Below, piece by piece: positions 4,586 to 42,732 of a stretch of DNA of 64,000 bases; the stretch's first letter is position 1, and every line of letters begins with the position of its first letter. The DNA comes from Neodothiora populina (taxonomy: Eukaryota), in contig NW_027191417.1 in the NCBI RefSeq assembly GCF_041146345.1, forward strand, positions 1,488,001-1,552,000, read 5' to 3'. The notes beneath the pieces are model-generated. The model did no database searches, was not told the origin of the DNA, and saw nothing but the letters and a program-made list of their open reading frames with translations. The position numbers were made by a program, and so were the translations under genes.

Positions 4586-4804
4586 TTGACATCTCGACAG
4601 TCACTCTCTTGTCACGTTGTTGTATGTTGCAGGACAGATCCACGGCCGCACTTTCCTCGTCTGAGCGAACCACACATGCGCGCTTTTTTTTCTTCGTCTC
4701 TGCTTCTCTAAGAGATGGTGCGTATCATATTAATCTAATCCAAAGACTGGCGACTGTGTCGCTGTTGTCAAAAGTCATCGCATTACCGGCCAGATACTCA
4801 TGTC

Positions 4805-7132
4805 ATGTCGCAGTATTTCACAATTCCGCGCATCCTCGCGTTGAGCGCAGCATCAGCAGCAGCGGTCCTGCCGACTTTTGTATCTGCTCAATATCCCCCG
4901 GCCGCGGACTATTCTCATATTCTCACCTCGCCTATTGATCCCAATATTACCATTGCATACAAGCAGCCAGAAGCGGGGACATGTAATACTGTATTCAATA
5001 CACAAAAGCAATATTCAGGATACATCGGCATTCCACCCTACACACTTGCTCCGATACAACAAAATTATAGCATCAACACATTCTTCTGGTTCTTCGAGGC
5101 TCGTCAGAATCCGGAAACGGCTCCTCTGACGATATGGCTCAATGGTGGACCTGGAAGCAGCAGCATGATTGGATTGTTCCAGGAACTGGGTCCTTGTGAA
5201 GTCGTGCAGCTTGCCGATGGCTCCTATGGCACTCAACCTCGCATGTGGGGATGGGACAGAAGCTCCAATGTCCTCTTTATTGACCAACCTGCCCAAGTCG
5301 GCTTTTCTTATGATTCACTTACTAATAAGTCTTACAATCTTCTTACTCAAGAGTATGCGAGCCCGGGGCCAGTACCGGCGGGCCAGCCTGCGTACACTTT
5401 CCTGAACGGCACCTTTGGCTCACAAGCCGCATGGGGTACATCTAATACCACCGAGACTGCGGCCCATGCAACCTGGCATTTCCTCCAGAGTTTTCTGGCA
5501 GCATTCCCTCAGTATAACCCTGGAACGCGGCCCAATAGCTCAAACATCTCTACCACTGGAGTCAATCTTTTCGCTGAAAGCTATGGCGGCAAGTACGGTC
5601 CAGTGTTCGCCAATCTGTTTGAAGAACAAAATGCAAAGCGCCGAAATGGAACCCTAGCGCCAAACAGCACGCTCGAGATATCGCTGTCGTCTGTGGGTAT
5701 CGTCAATGGCATGGTCGACCAGCTGATCCAGAGCTACTGGAATTCAATATACGCGTACAACAACACGTACGAGATACAGGCGTTTGACCAAACGGACGAA
5801 CTGAACGGATTGGGGTTGTATTCAGGGCTTAACGGTTGTCATGACTCGGTCATGGCATGTCGCTCTGCAGTCAACAGTACAGATCCGGATAATGAGGGGG
5901 ACGTCGATGCGACGAATCAGCTCTGCAAAATTGCCGCCAGCGCCTGTAACATGATTGACGCACTCTATGTTGAGAGTGGACGTGACGTGTACGATGTTCG
6001 CGTCAAGGACCCGACGCCTTATCCTCCTTTGGCGTACCAGGAATACCTCAATTCTGCACCGGTGCAGGCTGCTGTTGGGGCGCGGGTGAACTACACGGAG
6101 TCGAATAGCTTTGTACAGCGCGCTTTTCTTTCCAGTGAGAAGTATCGCCATTGCTGATCCAGGCGTCCAATGCTGACTCGCTCGACAGCCGGTGACTCCG
6201 TCCGAGGCGGGCAACTAGAAGATATCGCCAATCTCCTCCGCATGGGTGTTCGGGTTGCGCTCATCTATGGTGATGCGGACTACATCTGTGAGCAAAGACG
6301 GCGTTCCTTGGCGACCAAGTATCATTACTGACATTCTCTCGTAGGCAATTGGCTTGGTGGACAGGCAGTAGCATTCGCAGTAGCCGCGCAACTACCCGAC
6401 TACCCCTCAGTGAATGCGACGTCAATATCGACGAGCTCAGACACCTCTGCTGTGTCATCAGCTACGTCTTCCCCAGTCACGTATCTCTCTGGATTCAACT
6501 CGGCGGGATGGGCGGATATCGTGGTGAACAGCAGCTACGTGGGCGGCGCAGTCCGTCAATGGGGCAATCTTTCCTTCAGTAGGATTTACGACGCTGGACA
6601 CACAGTGCCATATTATCAGCCGGAAACAGCATTCACAGTGTTTGCGCGTATCATCGATGGCACCGACATTAGCACAGGCGAACCCATCAATGCGCTCAAC
6701 TTCACTTCGACGGGACCACAAAACGCAACACACACGAATTCGGCGCCATCGCAGCCGTCGCCAACCTGCTGGCTCAGGGGCATCAATGATACGTGTACGG
6801 AGGACAACGTGGCCGACATGATTGCTGGCAAGGGTGTGGTCAAAGCCGGCGTGTGGTACAAGGACGAAGATGACTATGTGGCTCCCAAGAGCTCAATCAC
6901 GGGTGGAAGACCAGGGACACCCATCACCAGTGCGACGTCTACTTCGAGTTCTGCGAGTTCTGGAAGCAAGTCTTCATCAGCGACGACGACGACCGTGGCT
7001 CCGGTGGGTGTGTACACGGCGACTGCGACTCCAAGCTCGTCATCGGGCATGGCGGGCATGAGAGAGCTCGATCAGTCTTCTCTGTTCGGGTGGGTCGCGG
7101 TGACGCTCGGTGGAATAGCCATGTGGCTATGA
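4805..7132 (+). CDS. Secreted serine carboxypeptidase (S10), probably GPI-anchored; introns 6135-6189 and ~6288-6344
   Basis: Signal peptide, FFWFFEAR, WLNGGPGSSS, IDQPAQVGFSY, AESYGG (catalytic Ser), YGDADYICNWLGG and DAGHTVP (His). Ser/Thr-rich stalk and hydrophobic C-terminus. Confidence 0.93.
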
Positions 7133-7667
7133 TGAAGATGAAGATGCGCAGGATGCAGGGCATGGAGCATCGCTTTACTTCCACGACCGAATGGCCAGGA
7201 TTGGCATACGAAAAGCTTTTGATATGGATACGGTTTTTTAATACAGGCAGCCGCTAGTGGACATGCCCTGAAGTATGATGGACAAGCATGAGTCACGGCA
7301 CTGTCGACTCGACATTGCTAGAAGTAGAATCAAGATACCCTCTTCTGCTTTATCTCTATTGTCTGACCAGTGAGATCGTCAGACAGTCATGTATATGCTC
7401 AAGTGTTGCAATGATAGAGTGGTGAAGCTGCGGAAATGCATTCTCTCTCCTCCGCAAACGCCAAGAAGATGGGGTTTAAAGGGAAGGAAGGGACGAAATG
7501 ACTTCACCTCTTGCCCCCAAAAGTTGGAGTAAAGAGCAGGAGCGACAAAGCTTTACCATTCATTTAATCATCAACGCGCGCATCACATCTCGCCCTCCCT
7601 GTTCCAGAGGGCAAGAGACCAAGTTTCGCCTCTTGTCACATATCTGATGAACAGAAGATAAGACAAG

Positions 7668-10013
7668 ATGGACTCTGAAGACGACGAGCTCCCTCGCGCC
7701 TCGTTCGGCGGGTTCAAGCGCAAAGCCGACGACGTGACATCCTCGACGACAACAGGCGACATGAACAACTACAGTCGCAAAAGCGCCAAAACAGACTCGC
7801 GCACCACACCCGGACCCAGTGGTGGCAGGAGCAACAGCGGCGGCGGCGGCGGCGGCGGCGGCAAAATGACGTTCGCGCAGCGTATGATGGCCAAAATGGG
7901 CTACAGGCAAGGCCAGGGACTGGGCAAAGAAGGCGAGGGAATCATTAATCCGATAGAAGTCAAACTACGGCCACAGGGCGCGGGAGTCGGCGCTGTCAAG
8001 GAGCGCACGGAGCAGTATAAGCAAGAGGAGCGGCGGCGGAAGGAGGCCAAGGGTGAGGTTTATGAGGACAGTAGTGATGAGGAGAGGACGGCGAGACGGA
8101 AGAGGAAGGAGGCTGCTAGGGAGAGGAAGATGGGTGCTTCTGGTGGTGCTGGTGCTGGAGGCAGGAGAAAGACCAAGTTCAAGACGGTCGAGGACGTCAG
8201 GGCTGCGGCGCCGGGACTCGAAGTGCCAAAGGCTATGTTGAGCGCCATCGTGGATGCGACGGGCGCTGAAAACAAGTTGTTGACTAGCGCTGCGGGCTTG
8301 ATGAGCGCGGGCGCTCTTGTTCCTAGCCAGACTGAAGAAGAGAAAATCAAGAAGAGGGAGGCGCTCGAGCTGAACGCTTTCATTGACGCTTGGCACGGTC
8401 TGCAGGAGAGAAAAATCGTCGTCGAGGAACACGAGGGTCAGTTGGCCATGGAGATGCAGAATATGCTTGATGAGATTGAGAGGATGCGCGCCTTGGTTCA
8501 GCAAGTGGAAAGGCTTGCGCTCAAGGGCTTGGTCAATCTGGGCGACGACGAGGTCAGGAAGGGACTTTGGACCACGAAAATCGAGGAGCTGGAGAAAGTG
8601 CAAGAGGATTGCAAGCATGAGATTGAGAGTCAGAATCTGGGCGAGGCGGCCGTCGCTGCTCTGAATCCGATTTTCAGTATGGAGATGGAGGATTGGGAGC
8701 CGCTGCTGGATCCTGCAGTACATCTAGTCGCGGGACTCACGAGGTTACGCCCAATCCTGGGCTTGGACAGCACAACCGATCTTACGACTAACAATGGCAA
8801 CATCGATGCTGGACTTCGCAAATATCGTCGGCAAAAGACGACTACACCATACGAGACACTCATCTACACCGTGTGGTTACCGAAGATGAGATCGACCGTC
8901 ACCAAATGGGACGTCTACGACCCGCAATCACTGATTACTCTTGTACAAGCATGGCGACCCCTCCTGCCCGCCTTTGTGTACAGTAACCTCACAGACCAGT
9001 TGGTCATGCCGAGACTGACGTCCGCTCTTTCGGCTTGGAGTCCGAAGCTATCAAGCAAGTCGAAGAGCAAGAGTGGCAGAAACACGCCTCCGCATCTGTG
9101 GCTGTTCCCCTGGCTACCATACCTCGCTCCTTACCATCTCGACCCCAAAGCACCAACCGGTCTGCTCAGCGACGTCAAGCGCAAATTCCGCGCCGTCCTC
9201 GACACCTGCGATCTATCCCGTGGCGTCGTGCCCGCTCTGTCCGAATGGCGCGTCCTGCTCAAATCCGACCTCGAAAACTCACTAACCCGACATCTCCTGC
9301 CCCGTCTCGCATCTCACCTATCCGCCAACTTCGAGATCGAGCCCTCAGACCAGGATCTCTCTCCTCTCGAAAACGTCCTCGCATGGCAAGACTTCTTCAC
9401 TCCCGCCGTAATGGCGCGCCTCATGGTCGCCGAGTTCTTCCCCAAGCTTCTGCACGCCCTGCACCGCTGGCTTCGCCTTGAAGGCGCCGACTTCGACGAG
9501 ATCGACCAGTGGTTCGCATGGTGGAAGGCGCAACTCCCGCCGCCCGTCAACGCCATGCCCGACGTGCAGACGCAATGGGCCAGAGGCGCAGAAATGATCG
9601 GCTCTGCGGTCAAACTCCAAGGACAAGGCCGCAGCATGTCCGAGCTCCCGCCGCCCGCCGCGGGGCCCTCTCGCCCCATCGCCACAGACCCAAGCGTGCA
9701 GCGCCGTCTCCGCGAAGAAGAAGACTCCGCCGCCCGCAAGAAAGAACTGCTCAGAAATCAAGAAGAGCCCACGTTCAAGGACTCTGTCGAGACGTGGTGC
9801 GCGGAGGAAGATCTCACGCTTGTGCCGCTGCGCGAGGCCCACACGGGCACGGGATTGCCGCTCTTTAGAATGACCGCTAGCGCGACGGGCAAAGGTGGCG
9901 TTGTTGTGTATCTCAAGGGAGACGTCATATGGGCTCAGAAGAAGGGCGAAAAGGGGAAGTTTGAACCTGTCCACTTGGGCGAGGAGTTGCTTGCTCGCGC
10001 GGAGGGACGATGA
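7668..10013 (+). CDS. TFIP11: G-patch spliceosome disassembly factor (TFIP11/Spp382/Ntr1 family), intronless
   Basis: G-patch AQRMMAKMGYRQGQGLGKEGEGIINPI, followed by a GCFC-like region (WLPKMRS, WDVYDP, HLWLFPWLPYL, WFAWWK). Confidence 0.9.
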   Translation: MDSEDDELPRASFGGFKRKADDVTSSTTTGDMNNYSRKSAKTDSRTTPGPSGGRSNSGGGGGGGGKMTFAQRMMAKMGYRQGQGLGKEGEGIINPIEVKLRPQGAGVGAVKERTEQYKQEERRRKEAKGEVYEDSSDEERTARRKRKEAARERKMGASGGAGAGGRRKTKFKTVEDVRAAAPGLEVPKAMLSAIVDATGAENKLLTSAAGLMSAGALVPSQTEEEKIKKREALELNAFIDAWHGLQERKIVVEEHEGQLAMEMQNMLDEIERMRALVQQVERLALKGLVNLGDDEVRKGLWTTKIEELEKVQEDCKHEIESQNLGEAAVAALNPIFSMEMEDWEPLLDPAVHLVAGLTRLRPILGLDSTTDLTTNNGNIDAGLRKYRRQKTTTPYETLIYTVWLPKMRSTVTKWDVYDPQSLITLVQAWRPLLPAFVYSNLTDQLVMPRLTSALSAWSPKLSSKSKSKSGRNTPPHLWLFPWLPYLAPYHLDPKAPTGLLSDVKRKFRAVLDTCDLSRGVVPALSEWRVLLKSDLENSLTRHLLPRLASHLSANFEIEPSDQDLSPLENVLAWQDFFTPAVMARLMVAEFFPKLLHALHRWLRLEGADFDEIDQWFAWWKAQLPPPVNAMPDVQTQWARGAEMIGSAVKLQGQGRSMSELPPPAAGPSRPIATDPSVQRRLREEEDSAARKKELLRNQEEPTFKDSVETWCAEEDLTLVPLREAHTGTGLPLFRMTASATGKGGVVVYLKGDVIWAQKKGEKGKFEPVHLGEELLARAEGR

Positions 10014-19036: not shown

Positions 19037-19882
19037 TCACTTGTCGTAAACTTCGTCCACAGCCATGGAGTCGCGATATACTTCAGCGTACTTGCCGTCT
19101 CTATCACCCGTTTCCTTCTGGCTGTCCAATATCTTTTTCAATTCCTCAATCTCTGTATGATCTCTGGTATGTCTCATCCTCCTACACCATTTCAGATCGC
19201 CATCCACAAATATCCACTCACCTCCATTCTGACTCTTTTTCCCTGGGTTTACCGTGATATTGCTCAAGCCTTGCCAGACACCTGCAGCCACGGACCCAAG
19301 AAAGCTCTGCTTGATATAATCCGGCTTTCTATCTCCTAATGCCAGACTTGACGTCATGCCTAGAGATATGTGAAGTGCGCGCGTAGGATCCGTAAAGACG
19401 TCGTACTTGCAGTTCGTATTGCGAATGAAGTCGTTGATGAGGGAAGGATCACCGCAGCCAATGATGGTCAGTGTCGTCGGTGGATTGCGCAAGTAGAGTC
19501 CAGCGGGCGAGATATGTGAAGACAGCGCTCTCACATACTCTTGACACATCTGTCGTTACAGAGTTAGTGATGGTTTCTACATGCGACTGTCATCGACTTC
19601 CGTCAGTGGTCGTGCGCGGATTCAAATTACCCCGCAGAAGAAGTGTCGGATGAACACGATAATATTGCGCCTCTCTGTGGGCTCCCTGCGATCCCACAGA
19701 CTTCTGAATTTGTGCGGTTTGCCATCGCTATCGAAAACGGGCAGTTCACCTGCTTCGATCACTCGTGATTCGGGAGGGAGTCGGTTTTGATCATCGACTG
19801 TCATCTCTGAATCGTATGTGGACGTAGAAGAGGAAGACGTGTTAGACATGTAAGATGGCCGAGACACAGCAGATGGTGTCAT
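19037..19882 (-). CDS. Second AhpC/TSA-like (PRXL2C/AAED1-like) protein; intron 19550-19630
   Basis: IIVFIRHFFCG|MCQEY gives a CxxC across the intron. Also IIGCGDP, FTDPTRALH and QNGGEWIF...RMRHTRDH. Confidence 0.88.
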
Positions 19883-21837
19883 GCTGGATATTCTCACACG
19901 CAGAGTACTCTCAACAGATAATGCAAACACTGGATCTTATCAGGAACAGACAGTGAACTAGTCAGTATGGTTTTTTCAATTTCATCTAGGGCGGCTATCG
20001 ATGTTGATCAAAACTGGGGAGCTAGCTGTCCTTATGAACAGCTTCATGCCAACTCGTTGGTTTGATAATATGGCAAGCGAAGCCTCATCCAGACCTCAGT
20101 CCATCACAACCGTAGCGTGCATGCAATTGTAGACGGGGTTCAACCGGATGCGCAAGATTGATTGGCGATGCTGAGCTGTTGATGCTGATGGTGGTGGTCC
20201 GTGAAATAAAGCCTGAGACCAGGGCTCTTCCTCCATCTTAGGGCTCGGGCAAAACCTTCCGTACCATTGGATCGACTGCAAGTATCAGAGCGACGACTAG
20301 ACACCGGAGAGGAGGCTCATGCGCTATCCTCAGACATTGCGAAGGACATGAAGCTACAGGCGATGGGATGTTCGCTGCCTCCGACGCAGTCTACAATTGT
20401 ATAGCAAGTGCGAGGGGGTTCGCCCTCCCCTTGAGGTCGCTTCACACGTTTCATGTGGAATCCCTGCTCACCACGTTCTCTTCGCACATCCATGCCGTGC
20501 AACCAGCATGCATCAAGCCCCTTGCACGCTCCACATGTCACGCTTGCTTCTAGCGTCATGTATGGGTGCAGGCGAGGTAATCCGTACATGGTTAACACAG
20601 ATATCTTTCTGACTTATACTCAACTTGCTATCGACGATCTCCGATGCAATGGTGTACGGTAGCTCGTCTCATTCTCTTCCAAAAGGGACAACTCAGGCGG
20701 CCAGTCAGAAGAGCACCACATGCAGAACCCAGCATTGCGCTCTTTCAGAAGAAGCCATGTCACCAATTTGTCATCTATACTTCCTTGACTCGCTCTATCG
20801 CGAGTTCCTGGTATGCCGATATGGTCGGTTCTGATCCATTACTCTTGAGGCAATATTCTTTCTGATCCGAAGTGGATGTCGGCGCTGTTGATGTCAGGAG
20901 CTTTGTGTCGTTCCTTCAACTTCTTGACTGATGGCTGTCTCCGAGTCATTGCTTGTTTTCGTCTCAGATCGCCTTCCAGTGCTGGTAGTGTTCTCTCGCA
21001 ATCTGCAACAAGCAAATTTGCTTTCCTCTCAAAAGTCAAACATGTTGCAAGGCTTGACTTGCGCTTAGATATCTCGGGAACTCTTATTCGAGTCATGCCT
21101 TGAGCATCTGTGATCATTACGAAGAGGCGGACACAACTTAGGCGAAGTATAATAGCTGTTCCCGAACACTGGGTCGAATTATCTGTCAATACCAATCGAT
21201 CGCGAAGCCGCGAAATCGTGAGCAATCAGTATGCTCGACTGTGGATGCTTGGCACCATAGAGAGCCTCATTTACATTTTCCGGTGTAGCTGTGTTCGACA
21301 TGGTAATTAAGTGCTTTAGATCAAGGGGCACATGGCGCACATACATCTTAAGACCGGTTCTGGGACATCCTGTGAATTCCGAGAGAAGCAATGATTCTGC
21401 TATATGCTCCTTGATACTTCATACTGGGCAGTTTTCGAGAAGCGGACAGCCCTACCATTGTATACATACACTGAGGAGCTTGGCATATATGTCTGGAATT
21501 TTAATGGATCAAAGAGCTTGTTTCCTGACAATAAGCATCTTCAAATCCAGGATCATATTGCAGAACGCTCGCTATCACGAAGATCTAATTTTTCGTCACA
21601 TCAACCGAATGATGTACGGAATGACGTGAGCATCAGCATGCTGCTGGATTGTGCTGCACAGCTGCACTGCATATCATTCTGTCAAGCCGAAGCTTACCTT
21701 GCCAAACAGCACGTACTCACAGTGATCTGCATACGGTAGAGCTTCTATGCGGGAAGGTCCATCCCAGGTACACGAAAATGTAACTGTGTACAGATGATTT
21801 ATTCGGGACACATTAAACCGAGAACATGTTTGTTTAT

Positions 21838-21872
21838 GTGGGGATGGCACATATGCGGGGCTATAAGCGGAG
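21838..21872 (+). promoter_or_regulatory. Three CreA/Mig1-type SYGGRG sites upstream of the aldolase
   Basis: GTGGGG 21838, GCGGGG 21855 and GCGGAG 21867, about 185-220 bp upstream of ATG 22057. Confidence 0.5.
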
Positions 21873-22056
21873 AGAATGACGATGCGGCAATCGTGAGACT
21901 CGAGGTAGATGCCGACGCTGCACCTGTGTGTTCCACACTTCAAATGACATGTTAGCAGATACAACGTCCATGTTTTCAACATCTCTATTTCTTGTACCAT
22001 ATAGATCATCGATCAGTCAATCAGTCGATCAATCAAATTCTCAAGGCACTCTGACC

Positions 22057-22994
22057 ATGACGCTTAACAAACTCACTTCCAACCGGGCGGTTCAGATGCT
22101 CAATGCTGCTGCGGAGGGAAAATATGGCGTCTTAGGTGTGGTGTCGTACAATATGGAAACGATCATTGGAGCAATACGTGCAGCAGAAGCCAAACGAGCC
22201 CCTCTACAGATCCTACTATTCCCATGGGCTCTGAAGTTCTCTCCGCTCTTTGTCGACTTTGCAGTGCATGCCGCGAGATCAGCGTCTGTTCCTGTGACGG
22301 TACATATGGACCATGCGCAAGAGCCCGAGATAATCGATCGTGCGTCCCAAATCAAGGCACCTGATGGATCTCCCGCATTTGACTCCATCATGGTCGACAT
22401 GAGCCATTACGAGAAGGAGGAAAACCTGGCTAAGACGACCGAACTCGTCAAGCTATGTCACAGTCGCGGCATCGCAACGGAAGCCGAGCCAGGTAGAATT
22501 GAGGGTGGCGAGGATGGTGTCAAGGACACTGCTGAGCTCCAAGGAATGATGACCACGGCGGAGGAAGTGGATGATTTCATTGCCACGGGTATTGACTTTC
22601 TTGCCCCTGCGTTCGGAAACGTCCACGGCGATTACCATGGTGTTGAGAACATTCACCTCGACTACGACAGGTATGACGAGTCAAGATCTAGCTGTACTAA
22701 ACGAGAATGCTAATGCGCTGTAGGCTTGCCTCGATTCACGAAAAGTCCAAGGGTCGGGTGCAGGTGGTCTTGCACGGAACCAACGAGTTCATCCCTGAGA
22801 TCTTGAACGAATGCATCGAACGCGGCGTTACCAGAGTCAATGTCAACAAGATGGTCTTGTCCGACTACTTTGAGTATGTGAATGCAAACACCGGCAAGGT
22901 ACCCCTGACGGAACTATTGGAGACCGGAACGGCCAAGATTCAGGCACAGTGTGAGGGTTGGATGGATGCTATGGGATGCTCAGGGAAATACTAA
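22057..22994 (+). CDS. Class II (metal-dependent) ketose-bisphosphate aldolase-like protein, not the glycolytic FBA1 type; intron 22671-22723
   Basis: VHMDHA, FDSIMVDMSH, EAEPGRIEGGEDGV, APAFGNVHG, VLHG and RVNVN. About 295 aa, resembling the GatY/KbaY-type subfamily. Confidence 0.92.
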
Positions 22995-23263
22995 ATGTAT
23001 CCATTTGTTGATACATATTTAGCTCGAAGAAAGCTCCATCCACCCAATCTGATTTGGCATGTATAGGGTTATATCCAGACTACTCTTCACATCAGACGTG
23101 AGATAAATTTGGGAAAAAAGGGATAGGGCAAAGCCATAGCTTGAAAGCATATGCTTATGTATCCACTGTTCTTTCCACACTGGAGAAACGACCACTTGGA
23201 ACACATGGATTTTATATATTTGGATTTGACAGAGTGAGTCGATATATGGAGGTCTCTAGTGAC

Positions 23264-24217
23264 TCAGTGCTCTTTCAAAGACTCTGCAAAGTCCTCTACA
23301 GCCTGTTTGAAACTCGAGTCCGCCTTGAATCCCAGGCTGAGGGCCTTCGTGATGTCGAAGCGGATCGGCCAACTCTCTAACATATCCTTGATCTCCTGAG
23401 ATGCCTTTTCTCTCTTCACCAAGGCCACAGCTTTGTCTCCGCCTACCTCCCTGAGAGCGTTGAGCATCTCTGCGACGTTCGCTGTAATACCAGGCAAATT
23501 CACTTGTCTGATGTGCACCGGCAGACAATCTCTCTGTAGAGTCAAGGAGTGCATGAGATTATTGACCAGTGTACGAGGTGAACAGAGCCATGCCTGGAAG
23601 CCATCGTCGCACGGCAATACACTCTCCTTGCCCTGTAATGGCTCACGGATGATTCCTGACATCCAGGACGAAGCTGCCTTAGTGGGTTTGCCGGGCCTGA
23701 CTGAAATAGTAGGAAAACGAAGAGAGAACCCATTGATGAGGTTGCGGCGGGTGTAGTCGTTGATGACATACTCGATCATGCTTTTCTGTGTACCGTACGA
23801 AGAGCCGGGCGTCGGTACCGTCGCTTCCGAGGGTGCCTCCGGTAAAGGTTGGCCATAGATGGCTGTGCTCGAAGCATAGATGACTCTCGTGCCCGGACAT
23901 GTCTTGCGAATGGCTTCGAGCAGACGTAGTGTGCTATGCAGATTCACTCGATATCCGAGGTCAAAGTCAGCTTCTGAGCCGGCGGACATGATTCCATGGA
24001 AGATGAAAATGGTGTCGAGGTCAGGTGCAAGAACAGCTTCGGGGTCTTCGTAGAGATCGGCCTTGACGCATTTAGCATTTTGTTTATTGCTCTCTGCTTT
24101 GGGTGGAACGGGTGGTTCAAAGATGTCCACTAAGACGACGTTGTGTGATGCATTCAAGAGATGCTCCGCGAGCATCTGGCCAACAAAGCCGCCGGCACCA
24201 GTGATTAGGATCTTCAT
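23264..24217 (-). CDS. Extended SDR / NAD-dependent epimerase-dehydrogenase, D-erythronate dehydrogenase (DenD)-like; 317 aa, intronless
   Basis: TGAGGFVG Rossmann motif and SYGTQK (YxxxK). IMSAGSEADFDLGYRVN and LRFPTISVRPGKPTKAASSWMSGIIREPL resemble DenD-family blocks. Confidence 0.85.
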   Translation of the reverse strand: MKILITGAGGFVGQMLAEHLLNASHNVVLVDIFEPPVPPKAESNKQNAKCVKADLYEDPEAVLAPDLDTIFIFHGIMSAGSEADFDLGYRVNLHSTLRLLEAIRKTCPGTRVIYASSTAIYGQPLPEAPSEATVPTPGSSYGTQKSMIEYVINDYTRRNLINGFSLRFPTISVRPGKPTKAASSWMSGIIREPLQGKESVLPCDDGFQAWLCSPRTLVNNLMHSLTLQRDCLPVHIRQVNLPGITANVAEMLNALREVGGDKAVALVKREKASQEIKDMLESWPIRFDITKALSLGFKADSSFKQAVEDFAESLKEH

Positions 24218-24356
24218 ACTGTGATTTCGAAGTCGAGTTTCAATGTTCACAACCCTTTTTTGCGTGATGAAAGGGAGGTGATAAGTCTCTTGGTTGGAGT
24301 GCTGTTGCGCGTCACCAGCACAAAACTTGGTTATCTGATTACAAGGATATAGTGAT

Positions 24357-24670
24357 GTGGGGTTGATCCAACCAGCAGTAGTGTACGAGTGCTTTATGGT
24401 CAACCATAAGTAATGATACGGTCTTCTTTCCGTGCCATCGGTGCAAGTCATAGACCGAGCGGTAGCTGATCTTTTCGTCACTTCCGCCGTGCACAATCCT
24501 ACGTTATAACATCACAACATCCGAGTTGCCGATGTTGCGTAGCTCCGTACAGCAGGAGCCTCTGCCTGTGGAGCCCCTCTATACTTGTAACAAGGCAGAT
24601 CTGCATCGGGTGCCACACATACCTCTTGCGGGGCGCTCTGGGGAAGCGGGCAGGCCCCACAACCCCGGAG
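24357..24670. promoter_or_regulatory. Bidirectional promoter with a cluster of CreA-type SYGGRG sites
   Basis: GTGGGG 24357, GTGGAG 24568, GCGGGG 24628, CTGGGG 24638, CCCCAC 24655, CCCCGG 24663 and CCGGAG 24665, between divergent ATGs 24217 and 24923. Confidence 0.55.
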
Positions 24671-24922
24671 TATTGTCCTCGGATGCCTCAACATGGTTAA
24701 TCCAATAGCCTATCTTTGTGCTTTAAATAATACATCAACCTGGATGATTCAGTGCTCGGTCTATTCTTGAGGCGAGAAACGGTGAACTATTTGGGTGAGA
24801 TTTGAATCAATGGAGCCCAGGCGGCTTCGTATGAATTTCTTGCCTGGCCCCCGAAATATATCAAGAACTCACTTTCGCTACGATTCACATGTCACTACCT
24901 TCCCTCGTTATTGAACCCCAAG

Positions 24923-26594
24923 ATGGCTACAGACTTCAAGAAGGATGAGCATGCTGAGCACGTCGAGCTGGAGCTTGATCTCAAGATTCCCAAGGTAGCG
25001 GGAGACGAGCAAGCCATACACCATGCTTTTGTAGCTCAGGACGAGGAATGGAAGGCCACACATACGAAAAAGCTCTTGCGAAAGGTTGACATGCATCTGC
25101 TGCCATTCCTGATCGCCATGTACCTTATGAACTTCTTGGACCGAAGCAATTTGGCTCAAGCACGACAGGGCTCGCTAGAAGAAGATCTGTACATGAAAGG
25201 CACAGACTTCAATCTTGCGACTAGCATCTTATTCGTTGGCTATCTTCTCATGCAGCTGGTATGTCAAGGAAGGCCTTTTGTACATCTTTGCTGCTTCACT
25301 GACGAAGTCTAGCCATCCAATGTTCTTATCACGAGAGTCAAGCCTTCGATTTATCTTGCGACAGCCATGTGCTTGTGGGGCGTTGTATCAACCTGCAATG
25401 CCGCCACCCACAATTTCACTGGTCTCGTAGTTGTCCGCTTCTTCCTGGGATTTGTCGAGGCACCTTTCTTCCCTGGAGCCGTTTTCCTCATGTCAAGTTG
25501 GTACACCAGAGCTGAACTGACGCGACGTATCGCCTGGTTCTATTCCGGTAAGAGTGACGTGGTCGTCAAGCCTGACATGGCGCTCACATTTGTCTAGGAA
25601 GCTCCTTGGCCAATATGTTTGGCGGTTTGCTTGCAGCTGGTATCCTAGGGAACCTCGATGGCGCCATGGGTATCGCTGGTTGGCGCTGGCTGTTTATTAT
25701 CGAAGGAAGCATAACTATCTTTTTAGCAATTCTCTCCGGGTTCTTCTTGCCTGATTATCCCTCCACCACACGCTGGTTGAGTGAGGAAGAGCGCGCCTTC
25801 GCTGCCTGGCGATTGGCGGATGAAATCAAAGAGTCTGATGACCAGCACTCAGCATGCGTTTGGCAGGGTGTTAAGCTCGCTGTCAAAGACTATCGTCTTT
25901 ATTACTTTCTGTTGCTACAGCACCTGAGCTTGCTCTCGCAAACCTTTCAATACTTTTTCCCGAGTATTGTGGCCACTCTCGGCTTTGGAAAGATCGAGAC
26001 TCTTCTCTTGACAGTACCTGGTCAGTATGCCCTCGCTCATAACCAGTGTCGCAAAATGGTGCCTATGCTGACAGAGTCTTGACAGTCTGATTCGCCACTT
26101 TCTTGCTATCAGTAGTTGTGACCTACACAAGTAGTATTACTGGAGATCGGAGCTTGCACATAGTAGTCCTGATGCTCATTGCCGCGGCAGGTAATGCAAT
26201 AGCGACAGGGACAACGTCCACTGCGGCACGCTTCGTGGCAATGTTCCTTATGCCAATGGGTGCGGTATCAGCATACCAGATCATTGTCTCCTGGGTGGCC
26301 AATTCGTTCCCACGTCCTTTGGTCAAGCGATCGGCGTCAATTGCCATATGCAACATGATTGGCAACACGGCGAGCATTTACGGTAGTTATATGTACCCAG
26401 CATCCGCAGCGCCGCAATACATACCTGGAGGCAGCGCCAATGCAGCGATAAGCGTGTCAGTGGGAATCCTGGCATTGGTCTTGAGATGGATGCATGCCCG
26501 AGAGAATAAGAAACTAGAGGCAATGGAGAGCACGGATGGTCACAGAGAAGAGGCTGGCGACACCAGGGGTGAGGGCTTCAGGTATGTCTACTGA
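24923..26594 (+). CDS. MFS transporter, anion:cation symporter (Dal5/Tna1-like) family; introns 25259-25312, 25548-25597, 26021-26085; in-frame TGA at 26088-26090 (possible pseudogene or alternative 3' splice)
   Basis: LLRKVDMHLLP, NFLDRSNLAQA, RFFLGFVEAPFFPG, SSWYTRAEL, GWRWLFIIEG, LPDYPSTTRWLSEEER and a C-terminal FRYVY. Confidence 0.88.
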
Positions 26595-27556
26595 TCCAGT
26601 AAAAAGGATTAGAGGACGATCGAAGCTGTAGCAGGAATACAAAGCCAGCTGAGAAGCTGCCGTTTCTCGGTCTCGACATGACACCCAAGTCGCCATTGTT
26701 GGTAATAAATATTACCTTGTATATTAGTGGGTCGATGACAGGTGCTTCGCACCTCGCTGGCGTGTGGTCATACCGTAGATTTGAGAGGTGTGTCCTCGGC
26801 AGATGAGCATATAGAGGATGATCCGTGGATGATAGATTTGCAAATGCGACGACGTTACAACCGTGCGTACCGCAATGGCTCCGGCGATGGTCGTACACTT
26901 GGAATTGAGATATTACCTTGGTTGTGTCTTGCGCATACCGCCATTGCGGGGTCTTATGGTAGTGTACTTGTCTGGGAGGCTTGTGTCGTTCTTGTGGTTC
27001 GCTCGCCACGAAGTATATCCATATCTCAAAAGCAGATCTCATGCTAGGCAAGGTGTGGATTAAGCATAAGGTTTTCCCAATCAAGTATATCTTGTTTATC
27101 GGCCAATGCCAAGATTGAGGCAGTGCATTTCACTTGAGAAGATCAACGTCATTGGTTTGTTTCAGAGCTCTTGTGAGCACGCACGCGATGCTGTCCTGCA
27201 CACGGCTTCTCGTGGAGCTACAACCTACGCATTCCGTAACTTGAGCTCTTTCTTGCTTGCGCCTCCTCGTAGAAGTGTGGTACCCGATCTTTCTCTTTTT
27301 CCTTTCATTTCATTGAGCAATCGTTTTCTGAGAAAATTTTACTTCTTGAAGCTGCTTGGCGACAGACTATCTGCATTTCCCCAATCAATTGCTCAGAATT
27401 CACACGCCGGGTCCCATTGTTGCTAGCAGGGTTGGATCCAATACACGGAACGTTTGATTTCTTCTCAAACCTCTTGGCTCGCCGTCTTACCTCGTTCGTA
27501 TCTATATTCAGCCAGAAGGCTTTTGTCCCATCTTACGTTCTTTTTCTTCCCTCAAC

Positions 27557-29125
27557 ATGAGTAAGTGCGCTCCAGTACATATCCCCAAATTCCGTCACCG
27601 CTCAGCAGTCCTTGCGAGTGTTTCGAGTTCGAGCCGAGCTCTTACAATATTGCGATCGCTTGTGCCCGATTGCTCGCCCTGTGCCGAACGCCGTACTAAA
27701 GGAATGCGCAGATAGAGTCAAAAGCTCATTCCACAAACACGGCCGTGGCTCCAACGATTGGGGCAGTCGCAGCAACACTATGAACGGCGACGGTGTCGGC
27801 AATGGCTCTACTGAGCACACTCCGCTGATGCAAGGGGCCCGCGAAAGTCTTGGGAACCTCAACAGCAGAAGACCGCATCTCAATGTGAATGCGTATGATG
27901 ATGACGAAAGGGCTTGGATTCGCTACCCTATGCGCTTCATCAGCACCACATGGGCTGTTCTGGCGAGCAACTACGTTAATTTCCTACTTGTCTTTGTCCC
28001 TGCCGGAATCGTACTCGGCGTCCTTAACGTCAACCCTACTGCCACGTTCATTGTCAACTTCCTGGCCATTGTTCCGCTTGCCGCATTGCTTAGTTTCGCG
28101 ACCGAAGAACTGAGTGTCAAACTGGGTCAAACTCTCGGTGGTCTCATGAACGCAACTTTTGGAAATGCTGTCGAACTTATTGTCAGTATCGATCACATTG
28201 GAGCTGAAATGGACAGCAACGCTAATGAACCTGATAGGTCTCGATCGTTGCCCTTCGTCAGGGCGAGATTCGCATCGTTCAGGCCAGCATGCTTGGAAGT
28301 ATTCTATCTAACATTCTCCTCGTGCTCGGGTGCTGCTTCGTCGTTGGTGGATGGAGATACCATGAACAGTCATTCAACTCGACAGTCGCATCTACTATGT
28401 CTTCGCTTATGGCAGTAGCCTCTGCTTCGCTGATCATTCCTGCTACGCTCTACGCAGTGCTCGCGAACTCCAAGTCATCGTCCACTGACAACATTCTCAT
28501 ATTGTCCCACGGAACAGCGATCATCCTGCTTATCCTTTACTGTCTCTACCTTTTCTTCCAGCTGAAGACTCATGCAAGTCTGTTTGATGAGGAGGAGCAG
28601 GAGGAAGGGGCTGACGCGAAAGAGCCGGAAGTCCTAACTCCCATACCTGCTGGCATTGCGCTTCTTCTGGTCACCCTCCTCGTTGCTGTCTGTGCAGAGT
28701 ACCTGGTTGACTCGATTGATGCCATTGTCGAAGAGGCACACATTTCCAAGACTTTCATTGGTCTGATTCTTCTCCCTATCGTTGGCAATGCAGCCGAGCA
28801 CGTCACTGCCTGTGTCGTGGCCTACAAGAACAAGATGGACTTGGCCATCGGAGTCGCCATCGGTTCCTCGATGCAGATTGCACTATTCGTCACTCCTTTC
28901 CTGGTTATTCTCGGCTGGATCATTGGACAGCCCATGACGCTCAACTTCCAAGTCTTTGAGACCGTCACATTCTTTGTCAGTATCCTTGTGGTTAATTACC
29001 TCATCCAGGACGGTAAGAGCAACTACCTCGAAGGCGCAATGTGCTTGGGCACTTATATCATCATTGCACTGGCATTCTACGTGTACCCCGATGATGCTGG
29101 TGTCCCCGGTGTCAAGAGCAACTAA
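27557..29125 (+). CDS. VCX1: Vacuolar Ca2+/H+ exchanger; 4-nt first coding exon (27557-27560), introns 27561-27711 and 28182-28238
   Basis: [14 protein letters not shown] alpha-1 repeat ([12 protein letters not shown]), [35 protein letters not shown] and DGKSNYLEG. Confidence 0.94.
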
Positions 29126-35303: not shown

Positions 35304-36259
35304 AGCGCTTTACACTTCTTTCTTGGAGCCGGCCTCATAGTTCAAAAGTAGAGCGGACTGCTATACACTTTGATTGTTCTGTAGCGATTTATCAGCGCAT
35401 ATTTCTACATTTCATCTTACCACGCCCAAATCAGACAGGTCACGGTCTTACAAATATACTATTTCTTGACGACTGTGGCATCAGATTATCACCGCTCTAC
35501 AACGGAAACGTGCATACCCCATCCATTGACCTTTGTTTAAAGATACTCGAGTATATACTTACAGAACAGGGTTACCCTCATGTCACAATTCGGACTTCTC
35601 AGCGCCGACCTAATACCGTATCCCACCAAACCGGGGCTTGAACGTCCAAAGATAAGGGCAGAATTAAGAAATGACGACAAGGACTCGATTATTCGGCCCG
35701 AAAAATGCGGGTCAAGATATGTTTACCCTGTACACAAATACACGCTCAAACAGACCGACTAGTTATCTCTTCTTTTATGTGAATGATCATCAGTGGATAC
35801 AAAGCAGTGTAGCGCAGGACAGCACAGCATGGCGAAGAAACAAGAAAACTTGGCTGAGAGCTTCTCCCCACGCCATTGTCGACATTCCGTATGATGTGAT
35901 GTGATGCGTCCGTTGTCATCGTGCCATCGTCGTCGTGGTCGATCATTGTAAATCATCGGGAAGGGTTGTGCAAATTGTGGAGATGTTTTCCGTGGATTTT
36001 GGTAGATTTGCAGCTCGTGCTTTCGCAGGAGATTATACGGTACATGTGTTTTGTGTGTAGATACGTGCACAATTTCTTTAGTACATCATCTACGCAATCA
36101 AAGACTAGATCTGACGTTTCTGTTATCTATTCACACCGCAACCGAGTTCTCTTGTTGCTTCTTCGTCTTCGATTCAACTCTCTTTTGTCATTTCCTTTCG
36201 AGTCACCGTTACGCAAAACACATACTTGCTCACGATTCATCCCCCGAATCACCCTCACA

Positions 36260-37144
36260 ATGGCAATCCGTGTGCCCCGTCTCCCGTCCCGACGGGCCAT
36301 GAAACCCTACATAGCAGAGTTCCTCGGCACGGCGCTTCTGATCGTGATAGGCGACGGCGTAGTCGCGCAATGTCTGCTTTCAGACTACACGTACGGAACA
36401 TGGCTAAGCATCAACATCGCCTGGGCAGCCGCGGTCTCGCTAAGCTCCTTCCTATCCGACCCATCCCCGACCATCAACCCAGCAGTGAGCATAACCAACG
36501 CCTTCCTGCGCCCGAGTCCCGCCCAATGGCGTCAGCTACCCGGTAAACTCCTCGCGCAGTTCCTCGGCGCCTTCATCGGCGCCGCCCTCGTCTACCTCGA
36601 GTACTACTCGGCCATCCGCGCCTGGGACCCCGAATACACCATCCCAGGCGGCAGCATCCTGTCTCCGCGCGGACATCACTCGGCCGGCATTTTCGCGACA
36701 TACCCGTCTGCAGCGTACTCCTCGAACTGGGAAGCCGCGCTGCAAGAAGGTCTGGGATCCGCCGTGCTCATGTTTGGATGTCTGAGTATCGGCGACGCGG
36801 GCGCCAACGGCCCCAGACGCTTCGCTGCGCCCCAGCTGAGTATGTTCTTGTTGCTTGTTGCTATCGGTGCTGCGCTCGGCTGGCAGACGGGCTATGCGGT
36901 CAATCCGGCACGTGATTTTGGTCCGAGATTGTTCTCCGCTATTGTTTATGGTAAAGAGGTTTTCACTGCTGCTGGTTATTACTTTTTGGTGCCGCTTTTT
37001 GTGCCCGTTGTGGGATGTCTGGTCGGTGCTGTCACGTATGATGCGTTTCTCTTTGAGGGAGAGGGAAGTGTGGTTACCGAGGCTGTTGAACGCATGGGCG
37101 GGCAGGGAGATGGGTCATTGAGGTTGGAGGATGACGAGTATTAG
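36260..37144 (+). CDS. Aquaglyceroporin (MIP family), intronless
   Basis: AEFLGTALL, INPAVS, AQFLGAFIGA, AGIFATYP and TGYAVNPARDFGPRL; NPARD is the glyceroporin signature. Confidence 0.95.
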   Translation: MAIRVPRLPSRRAMKPYIAEFLGTALLIVIGDGVVAQCLLSDYTYGTWLSINIAWAAAVSLSSFLSDPSPTINPAVSITNAFLRPSPAQWRQLPGKLLAQFLGAFIGAALVYLEYYSAIRAWDPEYTIPGGSILSPRGHHSAGIFATYPSAAYSSNWEAALQEGLGSAVLMFGCLSIGDAGANGPRRFAAPQLSMFLLLVAIGAALGWQTGYAVNPARDFGPRLFSAIVYGKEVFTAAGYYFLVPLFVPVVGCLVGAVTYDAFLFEGEGSVVTEAVERMGGQGDGSLRLEDDEY

Positions 37145-40945: not shown

Positions 40946-42253
40946 TCAAGCCGCGTTCGCTGTATCGAAACGTGAAATCATTTCCAAAGGCCATGCCATG
41001 GCCCATCTCCAGGAGTCTGGCATGATGGAATTGACCCCAAAAACTTCGCGCTCGGCCGCACCCGCAAACCACCAATATTGCTCTACTCGCTTGACAAGAG
41101 CCATGTAATGGGCATATATAGCCAGCGCTCGAGGTCGCTCCTCTGCCAGTAAGCCAATGAATCTCCTCGGAACCACCGGTGCAAACGCCATGGCACTCCG
41201 ACAGAGCTCGCGGGAACTGTCACCGCGTAGGACACCGGAGTGTAGCTCGTTGACATATGTCACGGTCTTCGCATAAGCTGCGACAGTATCGCTATCTGAA
41301 TCTTCGGCTTCGGCAGCATCCTCAAATTCAAGCAACTGCGAAAACGGGGGCTTCACGCTCAAGCCCAAGGCTGTCGAAGTTCCGTCCGGCCTTGTGTCCG
41401 AGAAAACCACCGAAAACTTGTCTCGTCCCCACCGAATCATTCTGCTGAGATGAGTCTGATCTGAGATGTATGGCATGGCAGCCTGAATGATGGGACCAGT
41501 CGCTTGAGAAATATAGAGAGCTTGGATCGGAGGAGAGTAGGAATTCTCCCTCGAGTGCTCAGAGTCAATGGGGGACAACAGCCTGTTCGCAATCATGGCG
41601 AGCATGACTGAAGCCAAAGTCAAAGCTTCTCCGTTATCGTTACTGATAGATGCCAATTCTGTCCTTTGTTGGTGCAAAGCAAGATTCAAATAAAAGCGGT
41701 GTATCTGTGCAAAATCCATGCCTTGAAAGGCTGCAGGCAGTTTGGTAGAGGGGGCCTCATCCTCATCCTGATTTAATTGAGGACTCAGTCTAAGTACAGC
41801 CGTGTGAAGCGCAGTGATGGCAAGAATGGTATTCTGGAGGAACGGAAATGAAAAGGAAAGCTCAACTGCATCTCTTGGATACAGATACCGCAATTCCGGA
41901 TCCTCTGCTGCTGGAAACGTCAATGAGACCGCAGAGATAAAGCGATGTAACAAGAACAGCTCTAATTGCTTGCGTTGCAACCCGCTAATGTCCAAAAGAT
42001 TGGCTTCATGACTTCCATTAGGGTCAGCCGTGACGCTGTCAACTAAGTTTGGTGAGGCGTCGGTGCTCCCTCTGCTTGAGCTGTTCGCAGCGATCTTGTC
42101 TCTACGCGGCGGTAACGAGATGTCGTATGTGCACTTCACCCTGTGGCGCAGACATGCAGTGCAATCAGGCTTCCGCTCATCGCATTTGATCTTGCGCTGT
42201 TTACATGTGGTACACCCTGTCCGGGACTTTCGATGATTCAATCTCGGTGGCAT
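40946..42253 (-). CDS. Zn(II)2Cys6 transcription factor (Upc2-like architecture), intronless
   Basis: HRKSRTGCTTCKQRKIKCDERKPDCTACLRHRVKC, plus ELFLLHRF, FLQNTILAITALH and ALAIYAHY...WRWAMAWP. Confidence 0.93.
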   Translation of the reverse strand: MPPRLNHRKSRTGCTTCKQRKIKCDERKPDCTACLRHRVKCTYDISLPPRRDKIAANSSSRGSTDASPNLVDSVTADPNGSHEANLLDISGLQRKQLELFLLHRFISAVSLTFPAAEDPELRYLYPRDAVELSFSFPFLQNTILAITALHTAVLRLSPQLNQDEDEAPSTKLPAAFQGMDFAQIHRFYLNLALHQQRTELASISNDNGEALTLASVMLAMIANRLLSPIDSEHSRENSYSPPIQALYISQATGPIIQAAMPYISDQTHLSRMIRWGRDKFSVVFSDTRPDGTSTALGLSVKPPFSQLLEFEDAAEAEDSDSDTVAAYAKTVTYVNELHSGVLRGDSSRELCRSAMAFAPVVPRRFIGLLAEERPRALAIYAHYMALVKRVEQYWWFAGAAEREVFGVNSIMPDSWRWAMAWPLEMISRFDTANAA

Positions 42254-42732
42254 AGGAATGACATGAGTTTGGCTAGTCGTTCAAGTCCCTCCATGAAAGA
42301 TCGCACTCCATGAATATCGTTAAGCTAAGGTAAGTCAGAAATTCGTAGGCAGCCTTGCCTGATACTACTGTAGCTGTAAGTGACAGGAGCGCATCCTTCT
42401 TCTCGGAAATAGTGGGGCTATCACCTTGATTGGTCCCTTGGCACTCGGTCTCGGTTTCGGTTTCGTCCTTTCATCTACGAGACCAAGTAAAAATTGAGGC
42501 TGGACTTGTACGTAGCAACCTATCTGATCCATCAACATGAAATTGCACTTCACCATGTCAAGTAGGGAAGCGGTCTCGATGCAAGGTAGGTGCAGGTTAA
42601 GGAGTATAAGTATCAGCGTGGGTCGATAGAATTCATCACTACCACCACATCTTCGGTCACATATTTGCAAAATTCCATCGTTCGAATTATAGCGTAACGA
42701 AACCACAATTCGATCAGGCATCAGCCGTAGTC

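Follow-up and report, generated by a model that had tools for sequence, protein, structure and literature searches.

Introduction

Catabolism of C4 acid sugars (tetronates) has been worked out in bacteria (2016 and 2024) and touched on in plants (2025), as the cited texts present it (PMC12540250, PMC12994016). The four-step bacterial pathway proceeds through DenD or LtnD, OtnI, OtnK and OtnC (Zhang et al., 2016; PMC10580937, PMC12540250, PMC13753588). In the three-step pathway (Guo et al., 2024), LtnD or DenD forms 2-oxo-tetronate, the DUF1537 kinase 2-OtnK phosphorylates it, and 2-OtnC, a member of the F_bP_aldolase family, yields dihydroxyacetone phosphate (PMC12540250, PMC12994016). The Arabidopsis protein LTD (At1g18270) carries LtnD, DUF1537 kinase and F_bP_aldolase domains in one polypeptide (PMC12540250); it was the sole eukaryotic tetronate catabolic system found in the literature searched. 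Here we describe a gene pair of the fungus Neodothiora populina, encoding a short-chain dehydrogenase/reductase (SDR) and a class II aldolase, within a stretch of 64,000 nucleotides (NCBI RefSeq assembly GCF_041146345.1, contig NW_027191417.1, positions 1,488,001 to 1,552,000, forward strand), which as a whole is called the window below and in which all positions are counted.

A first-pass annotation, made from the sequence of the window alone, had joined these two genes with a neighbouring transporter gene of the major facilitator superfamily (MFS) in an uptake-oxidation-cleavage module for a small sugar acid. It stated that no characterised fungal equivalent was known, and the full-text literature that we searched for a fungal tetronate-catabolic system indeed held bacterial and plant work only. 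What that annotation lacked is a published precedent for a PF01116 enzyme acting after DenD or LtnD, which is 2-OtnC (PMC12540250, PMC12994016).

Results

A dehydrogenase-aldolase pair is conserved in fungi

The three genes at 21800-26594 (aldolase, SDR and MFS) were rebuilt from the sequence by coordinates and confirmed. Aldolase and SDR converge, with stop codons 269 bp apart, and SDR and MFS diverge. The gene positions and spacings given earlier are thus reproduced, and the assignments as class II aldolase, SDR and MFS hold at family level (NCBIfam, Pfam). The features of the enzyme pair are as follows.

22057..22670 and 22724..22994, plus strand: aldolase coding sequence, 294 amino acids (gene model)
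22002..23112, plus strand: aldolase transcript as spanned by a spliced contig of sequencing run X2, 5' end at or before 22002 and 3' end at or after 23112
22057..22670, plus strand: aldolase exon 1, residues 1-204 and two bases of codon 205, with Asp85/His86 and His190/Gly191 (PF01116, E 4.6e-56; PDB 3pm6, E 4.2e-71; motifs)
22671..22723, plus strand: aldolase intron, 53 nt, GT..AG (model, confirmed by the joint in the X2 contig)
22724..22994, plus strand: aldolase exon 2 with TAA stop; His222-Gly-Thr-Asn225-Glu and Asn244-Val-Asn-Lys247 form the remodelled phosphate pocket (PF01116, E 8.8e-13; alignments to 3pm6 and to 1gvf residues 203-232)
23264..24217, minus strand: DenD-like extended SDR, one exon, 317 amino acids and stop; GxxGxxG 7-13, Asp31, Ser116/117, Tyr141, Lys145 (NF043036, 316.9 bits; PDB 2hrz, E 1.3e-62; homologs at 100% coverage; family-invariant residues)
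24218..24922, no strand: divergent intergenic region between SDR and MFS, 705 bp between start codons (sequence and models)

Metagenome contigs were scanned with an alignment of 27 fungal SDRs, which gave 80 loci of eukaryote-like composition with SDRs 46-86% identical to that of the window. Merging loci whose SDRs are at least 97% identical left 54 clusters. In 21 clusters, SDR and aldolase are no more than 3 kb apart (within 750 bp in 20 of these); another 11 show no aldolase although both flanks of the SDR extend for 3 kb or more, and 22 are too short to decide. Aldolase and SDR are therefore linked in 21 of the 32 informative clusters, at SDR identities from 49% to 86%. Ten of the linked pairs are convergent as in the window, five are in tandem and six divergent, and the remaining neighbours vary between loci (diphthamide synthase with Rogdi, DUF1989, a hydrolase with HET, DHBP synthase, RNA ligase). 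Linkage at this frequency, in three orientations and among unlike neighbours, therefore argues for selection for linkage and not for inherited chance synteny. In one public gene model, P0280, aldolase and SDR are fused.

We conclude that SDR and aldolase form a conserved fungal two-gene module. Synteny of the whole trio, which had been named as a check of the first proposal, was recovered for these two genes only: 8 of the 54 clusters have an MFS at least 40% identical to that of the window no more than 3 kb from the SDR, and a close MFS ortholog adjoins the SDR only at loci L002 and L003. What is conserved is the pair of SDR and aldolase rather than all three genes.

Individual loci show further arrangements. 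At L067 a fungal transcription factor, an FMN-dependent 2-hydroxy-acid dehydrogenase, SDR, aldolase and MFS stand together, and at L048 aldolase, SDR, a transcription factor and MFS. In a clade of SDRs 49-51% identical to that of the window (L064, L067, L068, L069, L071, L075), the SDR lies between a divergent FMN-dependent 2-hydroxy-acid dehydrogenase gene (PF01070), with a Cyt-b5 domain in L064, and an MFS 41-45% identical to that of the window; the clade is mostly without aldolase. Possibly, these loci represent the same catabolic cluster in an extended form. At L016, L022 and L025 (SDRs 72-74% identical) no aldolase adjoins the SDR. Fructose-1,6-bisphosphatase and GH76 genes directly precede it at L016 and L025, and L022 begins too near the SDR to show the upstream side; the downstream MLLE and GST genes are common to the lineage. 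Two public aldolase models are fused to other partners, P0290 (Paecilomyces) to an MFS/sugar transporter and P0292 (Pseudogymnoascus) to a Zn-cluster transcription factor. These two and P0280 are probably merged neighbouring genes, a hint of similar neighbourhoods in Eurotiomycetes and Leotiomycetes.

The SDR is DenD-like over its full length

The SDR matched the NCBIfam model NF043036 (D-erythronate dehydrogenase, DenD) with 316.9 bits over residues 1-312 of 317 and profile positions 1-318 of 321. NF043036 is an equivalog model with a curated cut-off of 325 bits. The next-best family was GalE, at 61.8 bits, and on this ground a reading as nucleoside-diphosphate-sugar epimerase was rejected. 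Grouping of the SDR with such epimerases had been named as a finding that would overturn the first proposal; with a score so far above that of GalE, the SDR is DenD-like and the objection fails.

An exhaustive profile-free search with the SDR returned 324 representative proteins at E <= 1e-30. All 91 full-length sequences scanned (the window SDR and 90 of the 324 representatives) matched NF043036. Every invariant and nearly invariant residue of the family alignment, in which the window SDR served as reference row, is kept in the window, including Tyr141, Lys145, Arg167, Arg174 and Arg191. The extended-SDR motifs (GxxGxxG, Ser, YxxxK) are present, with Gly7, Gly10, Gly13, Asp31, Asn92, Ser116/117, Tyr141, Lys145, Glu149, Arg167 and Arg174. 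An acidic residue (Asp) at the end of the second strand of the SDR fold goes with NAD rather than NADP, and Asp31 at this position suggests that NAD is preferred.

Homologs 66-90% identical occur across Dothideomycetes, e.g., in Delphinella and Aureobasidium, and also in Purpureocillium; by these best matches, the window belongs to a Dothideomycete. The closest solved relative is PDB 2hrz (residues 1-309 aligned), a structural genomics entry with the generic name 'nucleoside-diphosphate-sugar epimerase' and a title without activity. The fungal homologs listed are publicly named 'hypothetical protein' or 'nucleoside-diphosphate-sugar epimerase', in one case 'GDP-mannose 3,5-epimerase'. By homology, the SDR is DenD-like from end to end, and this enzymatic role is a predicted one.

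The aldolase is spliced and has an altered phosphate pocket

Both aldolase exons match PF01116. The GatY/KbaY type assigned in the first-pass annotation had to be given up: among NCBIfam models, exon 1 scored highest on the generic class II fructose-bisphosphate aldolase PRK06806 (124.8 bits), followed by GatY (92.2) and KbaY (63.8), all far under their cut-offs (383-542). A glycolytic fructose-bisphosphate aldolase was rejected as well, as structures of type A match weakly (E 1e-8 or worse) and no row of the tree is more distant than the E. coli-type one. The nearest solved structure is PDB 3pm6 from Coccidioides immitis (E 2.2e-14 for exon 2), a structural genomics entry described as 'putative fructose-bisphosphate aldolase' and left without an assigned function in the cited text (PMC3123459). 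The public names of the aldolase relatives listed are 'fructose-bisphosphate aldolase' and 'hypothetical protein'.

In run X2, one contig of 1080 nt is spliced: 22002-22668 is followed directly by 22722-23112, and the 53 nt missing between them, which have GT..AG ends, are the predicted intron. This shows that the gene is transcribed and that its splicing agrees with the model; in-frame ATGs upstream fall outside the transcript. Runs X1 and X2 come from one sample; X1 is the likely source of the assembly, and X2 was labelled 'DNA?' by guess; the spliced contig and the patchy cover fit cDNA, which we infer it to be. The contig carries an adapter-like loose end at 22002. Its ends place the 5' end of the mRNA about 55 nt before the ATG and the 3' end about 118 nt past the stop, some 150 bp from the stop codon of the convergent SDR. 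No X2 contig covers the SDR or 26004-26600, which says nothing about the expression of those genes. Over the MFS, X2 gave low-depth unspliced pieces only (24840-25893), and runs X3 and X4 gave short, partly unlike pieces.

Class II aldolases hold the phosphate through the Ser211 and Thr233 side chains, backbone amides and a sodium ion; the C3 hydroxyl is bound by Asp82 and Asn230, and the Zn ligands are His83, His180 and His208 (PMC10665668). With canonical numbers from this source and from the alignment to 1gvf, the active site of the window aldolase reads as follows.

Catalysis and C3 hydroxyl: canonical Asp82, window Asp85, kept
Zn ligands: canonical His83, His180 and His208, window His86, His190 and His222, kept
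C3 hydroxyl: canonical Asn230, window Asn244, kept
Phosphate pocket: canonical Ser211-Gly212, window Asn225-Glu226, changed
Phosphate pocket: canonical Thr233-Glu234, window Lys247-Met248, changed

Among the 27 fungal loci with an exon-2 match, the motif HGTN[EGT]F occurs in 22 and NVNK in 13, and the pocket position is Gln or Gly in some members of the fungal family. 3pm6 shows the same altered motifs as the window (HGADPF within LHGADPF, NVNR within VNVNRAV). The bacterial rows shown from outside the 2-OtnC-type clade have Ser or Thr at the first pocket position and Thr at the second, and in its pocket the window aldolase is unlike all bacterial and plant relatives compared.

No pathway kinase found beside the pair

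Pfam detected neither PF07005 nor PF17042 (DUF1537) in 40 open reading frames (ORFs) of the window (38 of the 77 with at least 130 amino acids and two shorter ones). Purpose-built hidden Markov models (HMMs) of OtnK, 2-OtnK, OtnC, OtnI and LtnD had no match in its six-frame ORFs of at least 30 amino acids. To this extent, the earlier statement that no kinase gene is visible in the window is borne out. Both Pfam families were also missing among 193 flank ORFs from 30 fungal loci, and no aldolase-DUF1537 fusion was present among 31 longer fungal aldolase homologs. The extra domains of these 31 proteins (SDR, MFS, Zn-cluster factor, terpene synthase) look like merged neighbouring genes. A longer-protein search with a bacterial 2-OtnK listed 120 of 580 matches, nearly all plant LTD and none named fungal, by which stand-alone fungal kinases are not excluded; a search of the ESM Atlas with the same kinase gave bacterial clusters only, and this does not show the absence of stand-alone fungal kinases either. 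As no fungal locus examined has a kinase gene beside the pair, the kinase is either supplied from elsewhere in the genome or dispensed with.

Relatives in bacteria and plants

A scan of bacterial genomes with a 14-row SDR alignment yielded 80 loci with SDRs 37-46% identical to the fungal SDR. Pfam identified the canonical four-step tetronate cluster in the ten loci scanned. L081 (Providencia), for example, comprises DUF1537 kinase, Aldolase_II (OtnC), the isomerase OtnI, DeoR, DenD and GntP; with seeds from this locus, OtnK was found in 36, OtnC in 32 and OtnI in 37 of the 80 loci. The fungal-type aldolase (PF01116) was matched in none of the 80. The pairing of DenD with PF01116 was therefore not inherited from these closest bacterial relatives.

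Aldolase exon 1 was compared with 401 genomes of one bacterial phylum, of which 90 had a match at E <= 1e-15 with 30-45% identity (one of them, G323, is an unpublished genome on which no other result rests). Among the bacterial loci fetched, three operons consist of a DUF1537 kinase, an F_bP_aldolase and an LtnD-like dehydrogenase. Two further members of the same aldolase clade have a kinase within 5 kb, and one has none in 15 kb. At one locus (L196, 13923-14981, genome G198), the kinase/aldolase/LtnD operon has a DRL-type oxidoreductase with a SAF domain at a distance of about 4 kb.

A tree of 37 rows made with IQ-TREE grouped four fungal aldolases with six bacterial rows of 2-OtnC type (support 100/95). 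A FastTree analysis of 41 rows, to which five plant LTD domains and two more fungal proteins had been added, put the fungal and plant LTD rows on the same side of a split (support 99) as those of 2-OtnC type. Sampling covered one bacterial phylum and five other genomes. With a length of 1.83, the fungal stem is a long branch, and joins of long branches were flagged by the tree program; for this reason, a relationship of the fungal aldolases to the 2-OtnC type and the plant LTD aldolase domain is likely and not proven.

Compared with the three-step bacterial pathway, the fungal pair likewise combines a DenD-family dehydrogenase with a PF01116 enzyme, its aldolases group with the kinase-linked PF01116 genes of that pathway, and the catalytic Asp and Zn-binding His residues are kept. 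However, the fungal loci have no linked kinase, Ser211 and Thr233 are replaced, the dehydrogenase is DenD-like where the three bacterial operons carry an LtnD-like one, and the aldolase is only 33-41% identical to its best bacterial matches. With the four-step pathway the fungal loci share the SDR, at the 37-46% identity to the DenDs of such clusters given above, and bacterial clusters often include an MFS or GntP transporter; in contrast, OtnC of that pathway belongs to PF00596, an unrelated fold, and the fungal loci lack OtnI, OtnK and a PF00596 gene. The aldolase domain of Arabidopsis LTD falls on the fungal side of the tree split, but the plant protein keeps the kinase and the Ser-Gly/Thr-Glu phosphate pocket, its dehydrogenase is of LtnD type rather than DenD type, and its domains are fused where the fungal genes are separate.

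The transporter gene is interrupted in the window

The MFS gene was modelled with four exons, as listed here.

24923..25258, plus strand: MFS exon 1 (model; aligned to L002 and L003)
25313..25547, plus strand: MFS exon 2 (model; PF07690; TIGR00893, 52.8 bits)
25598..26020, plus strand: MFS exon 3 (model; Pfam and NCBIfam matches)
26086..26594, plus strand: MFS exon 4 with the acceptor common to the orthologs, ending at TGA 26592-26594 (model; ortholog alignments)
26088..26090, plus strand: in-frame TGA, TGG (Trp) in L002, L003 and L054 (protein alignments; junction DNA)

Three of the exons match PF07690. All four match TIGR00893 (ACS family), which is the best NCBIfam match for three (26.4, 52.8 and 55.7 bits) and the second for the fourth (15.5 bits); these are weak matches, whose summed scores stay far below the cut-off of 395. 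The MFS orthologs of L002 and L003 are 77-78% identical and have their last intron at the same place as the window, and L054 is without that intron. All three read on through "...TVPVW-FATF..", and the window has TCTGA where L002 and L003 have TCTGG. With the intron position shared by the orthologs, exon 4 starts at 26086 and the TGA replaces a conserved Trp. An alternative acceptor at 26110-26112 restores the frame, but drops nine conserved residues of a membrane helix. The base in question is covered by run X1 only. The stop may reflect a pseudogene, an assembly error or alternative splicing. The MFS assignment stands at family level, its placing in the ACS family is tentative, and an intact transporter cannot be upheld.

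An MFS matching that of the window at 25-31% identity is present in 21 of the 80 bacterial DenD loci, and an mfs gene is part of the Brucella erythronate operon (PMC10580937).

Surroundings of the locus

The genes flanking the three are unrelated to them by Pfam: an AhpC/TSA_2 protein at 19037-19555 and an Na/Ca exchanger at 27561-29125. Other Pfam neighbours in the window are ordinary, namely phosphomannose isomerase (2145-3586), serine carboxypeptidase S10 (4739-7132), G-patch/GCFC (7662-10013), aquaporin (MIP, 35900-37144) and a GH76 mannanase-like gene (50300-51652). Fungal transcription-factor genes lie at 40946-42280 (Zn2Cys6) and 45462-46031 (Fungal_trans_2), 14-19 kb downstream of the MFS; this distance is too great to link them to the module. 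No 8- to 10-mer was common to the region upstream of the aldolase, the SDR-MFS intergenic region and the matching regions of L003, in which single CGG..CCG sites only were seen.

Discussion

On balance, we favour, with some reserve, a module in which a DenD-like dehydrogenase and then a 2-OtnC-related aldolase-fold enzyme act on a small acid sugar, with the MFS as a lineage-specific addition. The NAD-type SDR would oxidise the C2 hydroxyl of the acid sugar to a 2-oxo acid, with D-erythronate as the model substrate and threonate or a near relative possible. The Zn-dependent class II aldolase-fold enzyme, kin to 2-OtnC and to the C-terminal domain of LTD, would then break the carbon chain, likely through an enediolate on the metal and subsequent decarboxylation, and a triose would enter glycolysis. 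The ACS-type MFS would import the acid and would have been recruited beside the pair in some lineages. Both enzymes have homologs in described tetronate pathways, their catalytic and metal-binding residues are kept, their genes stay adjacent, and the aldolase transcript is spliced; what the substrate is, which enzyme acts first and what is produced are inferred. A phosphorylation may or may not take place between the two steps, and the pair may be a shorter, undescribed route without the kinase used by bacteria and plants. From the uptake-oxidation-cleavage module of the first-pass annotation, the enzyme pair and the sugar-acid theme survive, now with the precedent of 2-OtnC; the trio as a unit, the GatY/KbaY label and the intact transporter do not.

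Several results weigh against the favoured module. The SDR is without a nearby aldolase in 11 of the 32 informative clusters and scores 8 bits below the equivalog cut-off of NF043036. The phosphate-holding Ser211 and Thr233 have become Asn225 and Lys247 in the window aldolase, and the Ser-Gly and Thr-Glu pairs are kept in all six bacterial 2-OtnC-type rows and all five plant LTD rows. HMM searches of ORFs of at least 30 amino acids found no DUF1537 kinase, OtnI, PF00596 OtnC or LtnD within up to 10 kb of the SDR at the 80 fungal loci. Added to these are the missing PF01116 gene in the bacterial DenD loci, the long fungal stem with its long-branch warning, and the in-frame stop codon that interrupts the MFS of the window.

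A rival reading is a kinase-free two-enzyme route, in which free 2-oxo-tetronate, made by the DenD-like enzyme, would be isomerised and decarboxylated by the aldolase-fold enzyme with its remodelled pocket to dihydroxyacetone and CO2, followed by an ordinary dihydroxyacetone kinase. We regard this route as rather improbable. It is in line with the lack of a DUF1537 kinase beside the pair in the 80 fungal loci and the window, with the lack of an aldolase-DUF1537 fusion among the 31 longer homologs, and with the replacement of both phosphate ligands in the fungal family (HGTN[EGT]F in 22/27, NVNK in 13/27; PMC10665668) next to retained catalytic Asp and Zn-binding His residues. However, phosphate might still be bound with Lys or Arg in place of Thr233 and with Asn in place of Ser211; a lysine does so in the fructose-bisphosphate aldolase of E. 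coli (PMC10665668), and Gln or Gly takes the pocket position in some family members. Further, a kinase may be encoded elsewhere: our search covered the window and the loci only, and pathway genes in fungi are often unlinked. In its general form, the idea that many Pezizomycotina break down erythronate-type C4 acids by two enzymes independently of a kinase, with a rebuilt 2-OtnC-derived pocket (Ser211 to Asn, Thr233 to Lys or Arg) releasing dihydroxyacetone and CO2, is likewise doubtful. Cells make erythronate by dephosphorylation of 4-phosphoerythronate, as described in the metabolite-repair literature, and a possible use of the kinase-free route is the salvage of the cell's own erythronate.

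It also appears unlikely that the pair serves another substrate class, such as the aldonic acids of C5 or C6 size or the dicarboxylic acid sugars, e.g., tartrate, in which case Lys247 would hold the second carboxylate and the products would not be triose. The altered phosphate pocket would suit such a substrate, as would the SDR score just under the DenD equivalog cut-off; the setting of the 49-51% SDR clade, with an FMN-dependent 2-hydroxy-acid dehydrogenase on one side and an MFS on the other, points to 2-hydroxy acids as a general class, and related bacterial C4-pathway enzymes are reported to be promiscuous on C5 and C6 acids (PMC12994016). Nevertheless, the SDR keeps all family-invariant residues of its DenD relatives, the nearest bacterial relatives with interpretable context are in tetronate clusters, and the data favour no single alternative substrate. 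Finally, that two unrelated housekeeping or orphan enzymes are neighbours by chance is very improbable: the 11 of 32 informative clusters without an aldolase by the SDR and the failure to find a shared promoter motif would agree with it, but the pair is kept in 21 of 32 clusters over SDR identities of 49% to 86%, in three orientations and among unrelated neighbours, and the two families cooperate in bacteria and, in plants, are joined with the kinase in one protein.

The bacterial and plant pathway is known; what is new is a fungal pair without a linked kinase and with an altered phosphate pocket. Its adjacency, together with the homology to DenD and 2-OtnC, gives two generically named fungal families a concrete function that is cheap to test. 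If the kinase is truly dispensable, the pair would reveal how a decarboxylase of aldolase fold gave up its dependence on phosphate for a non-phosphorylated substrate; for engineering, it would supply a path of two enzymes that leads from erythronate to a triose.

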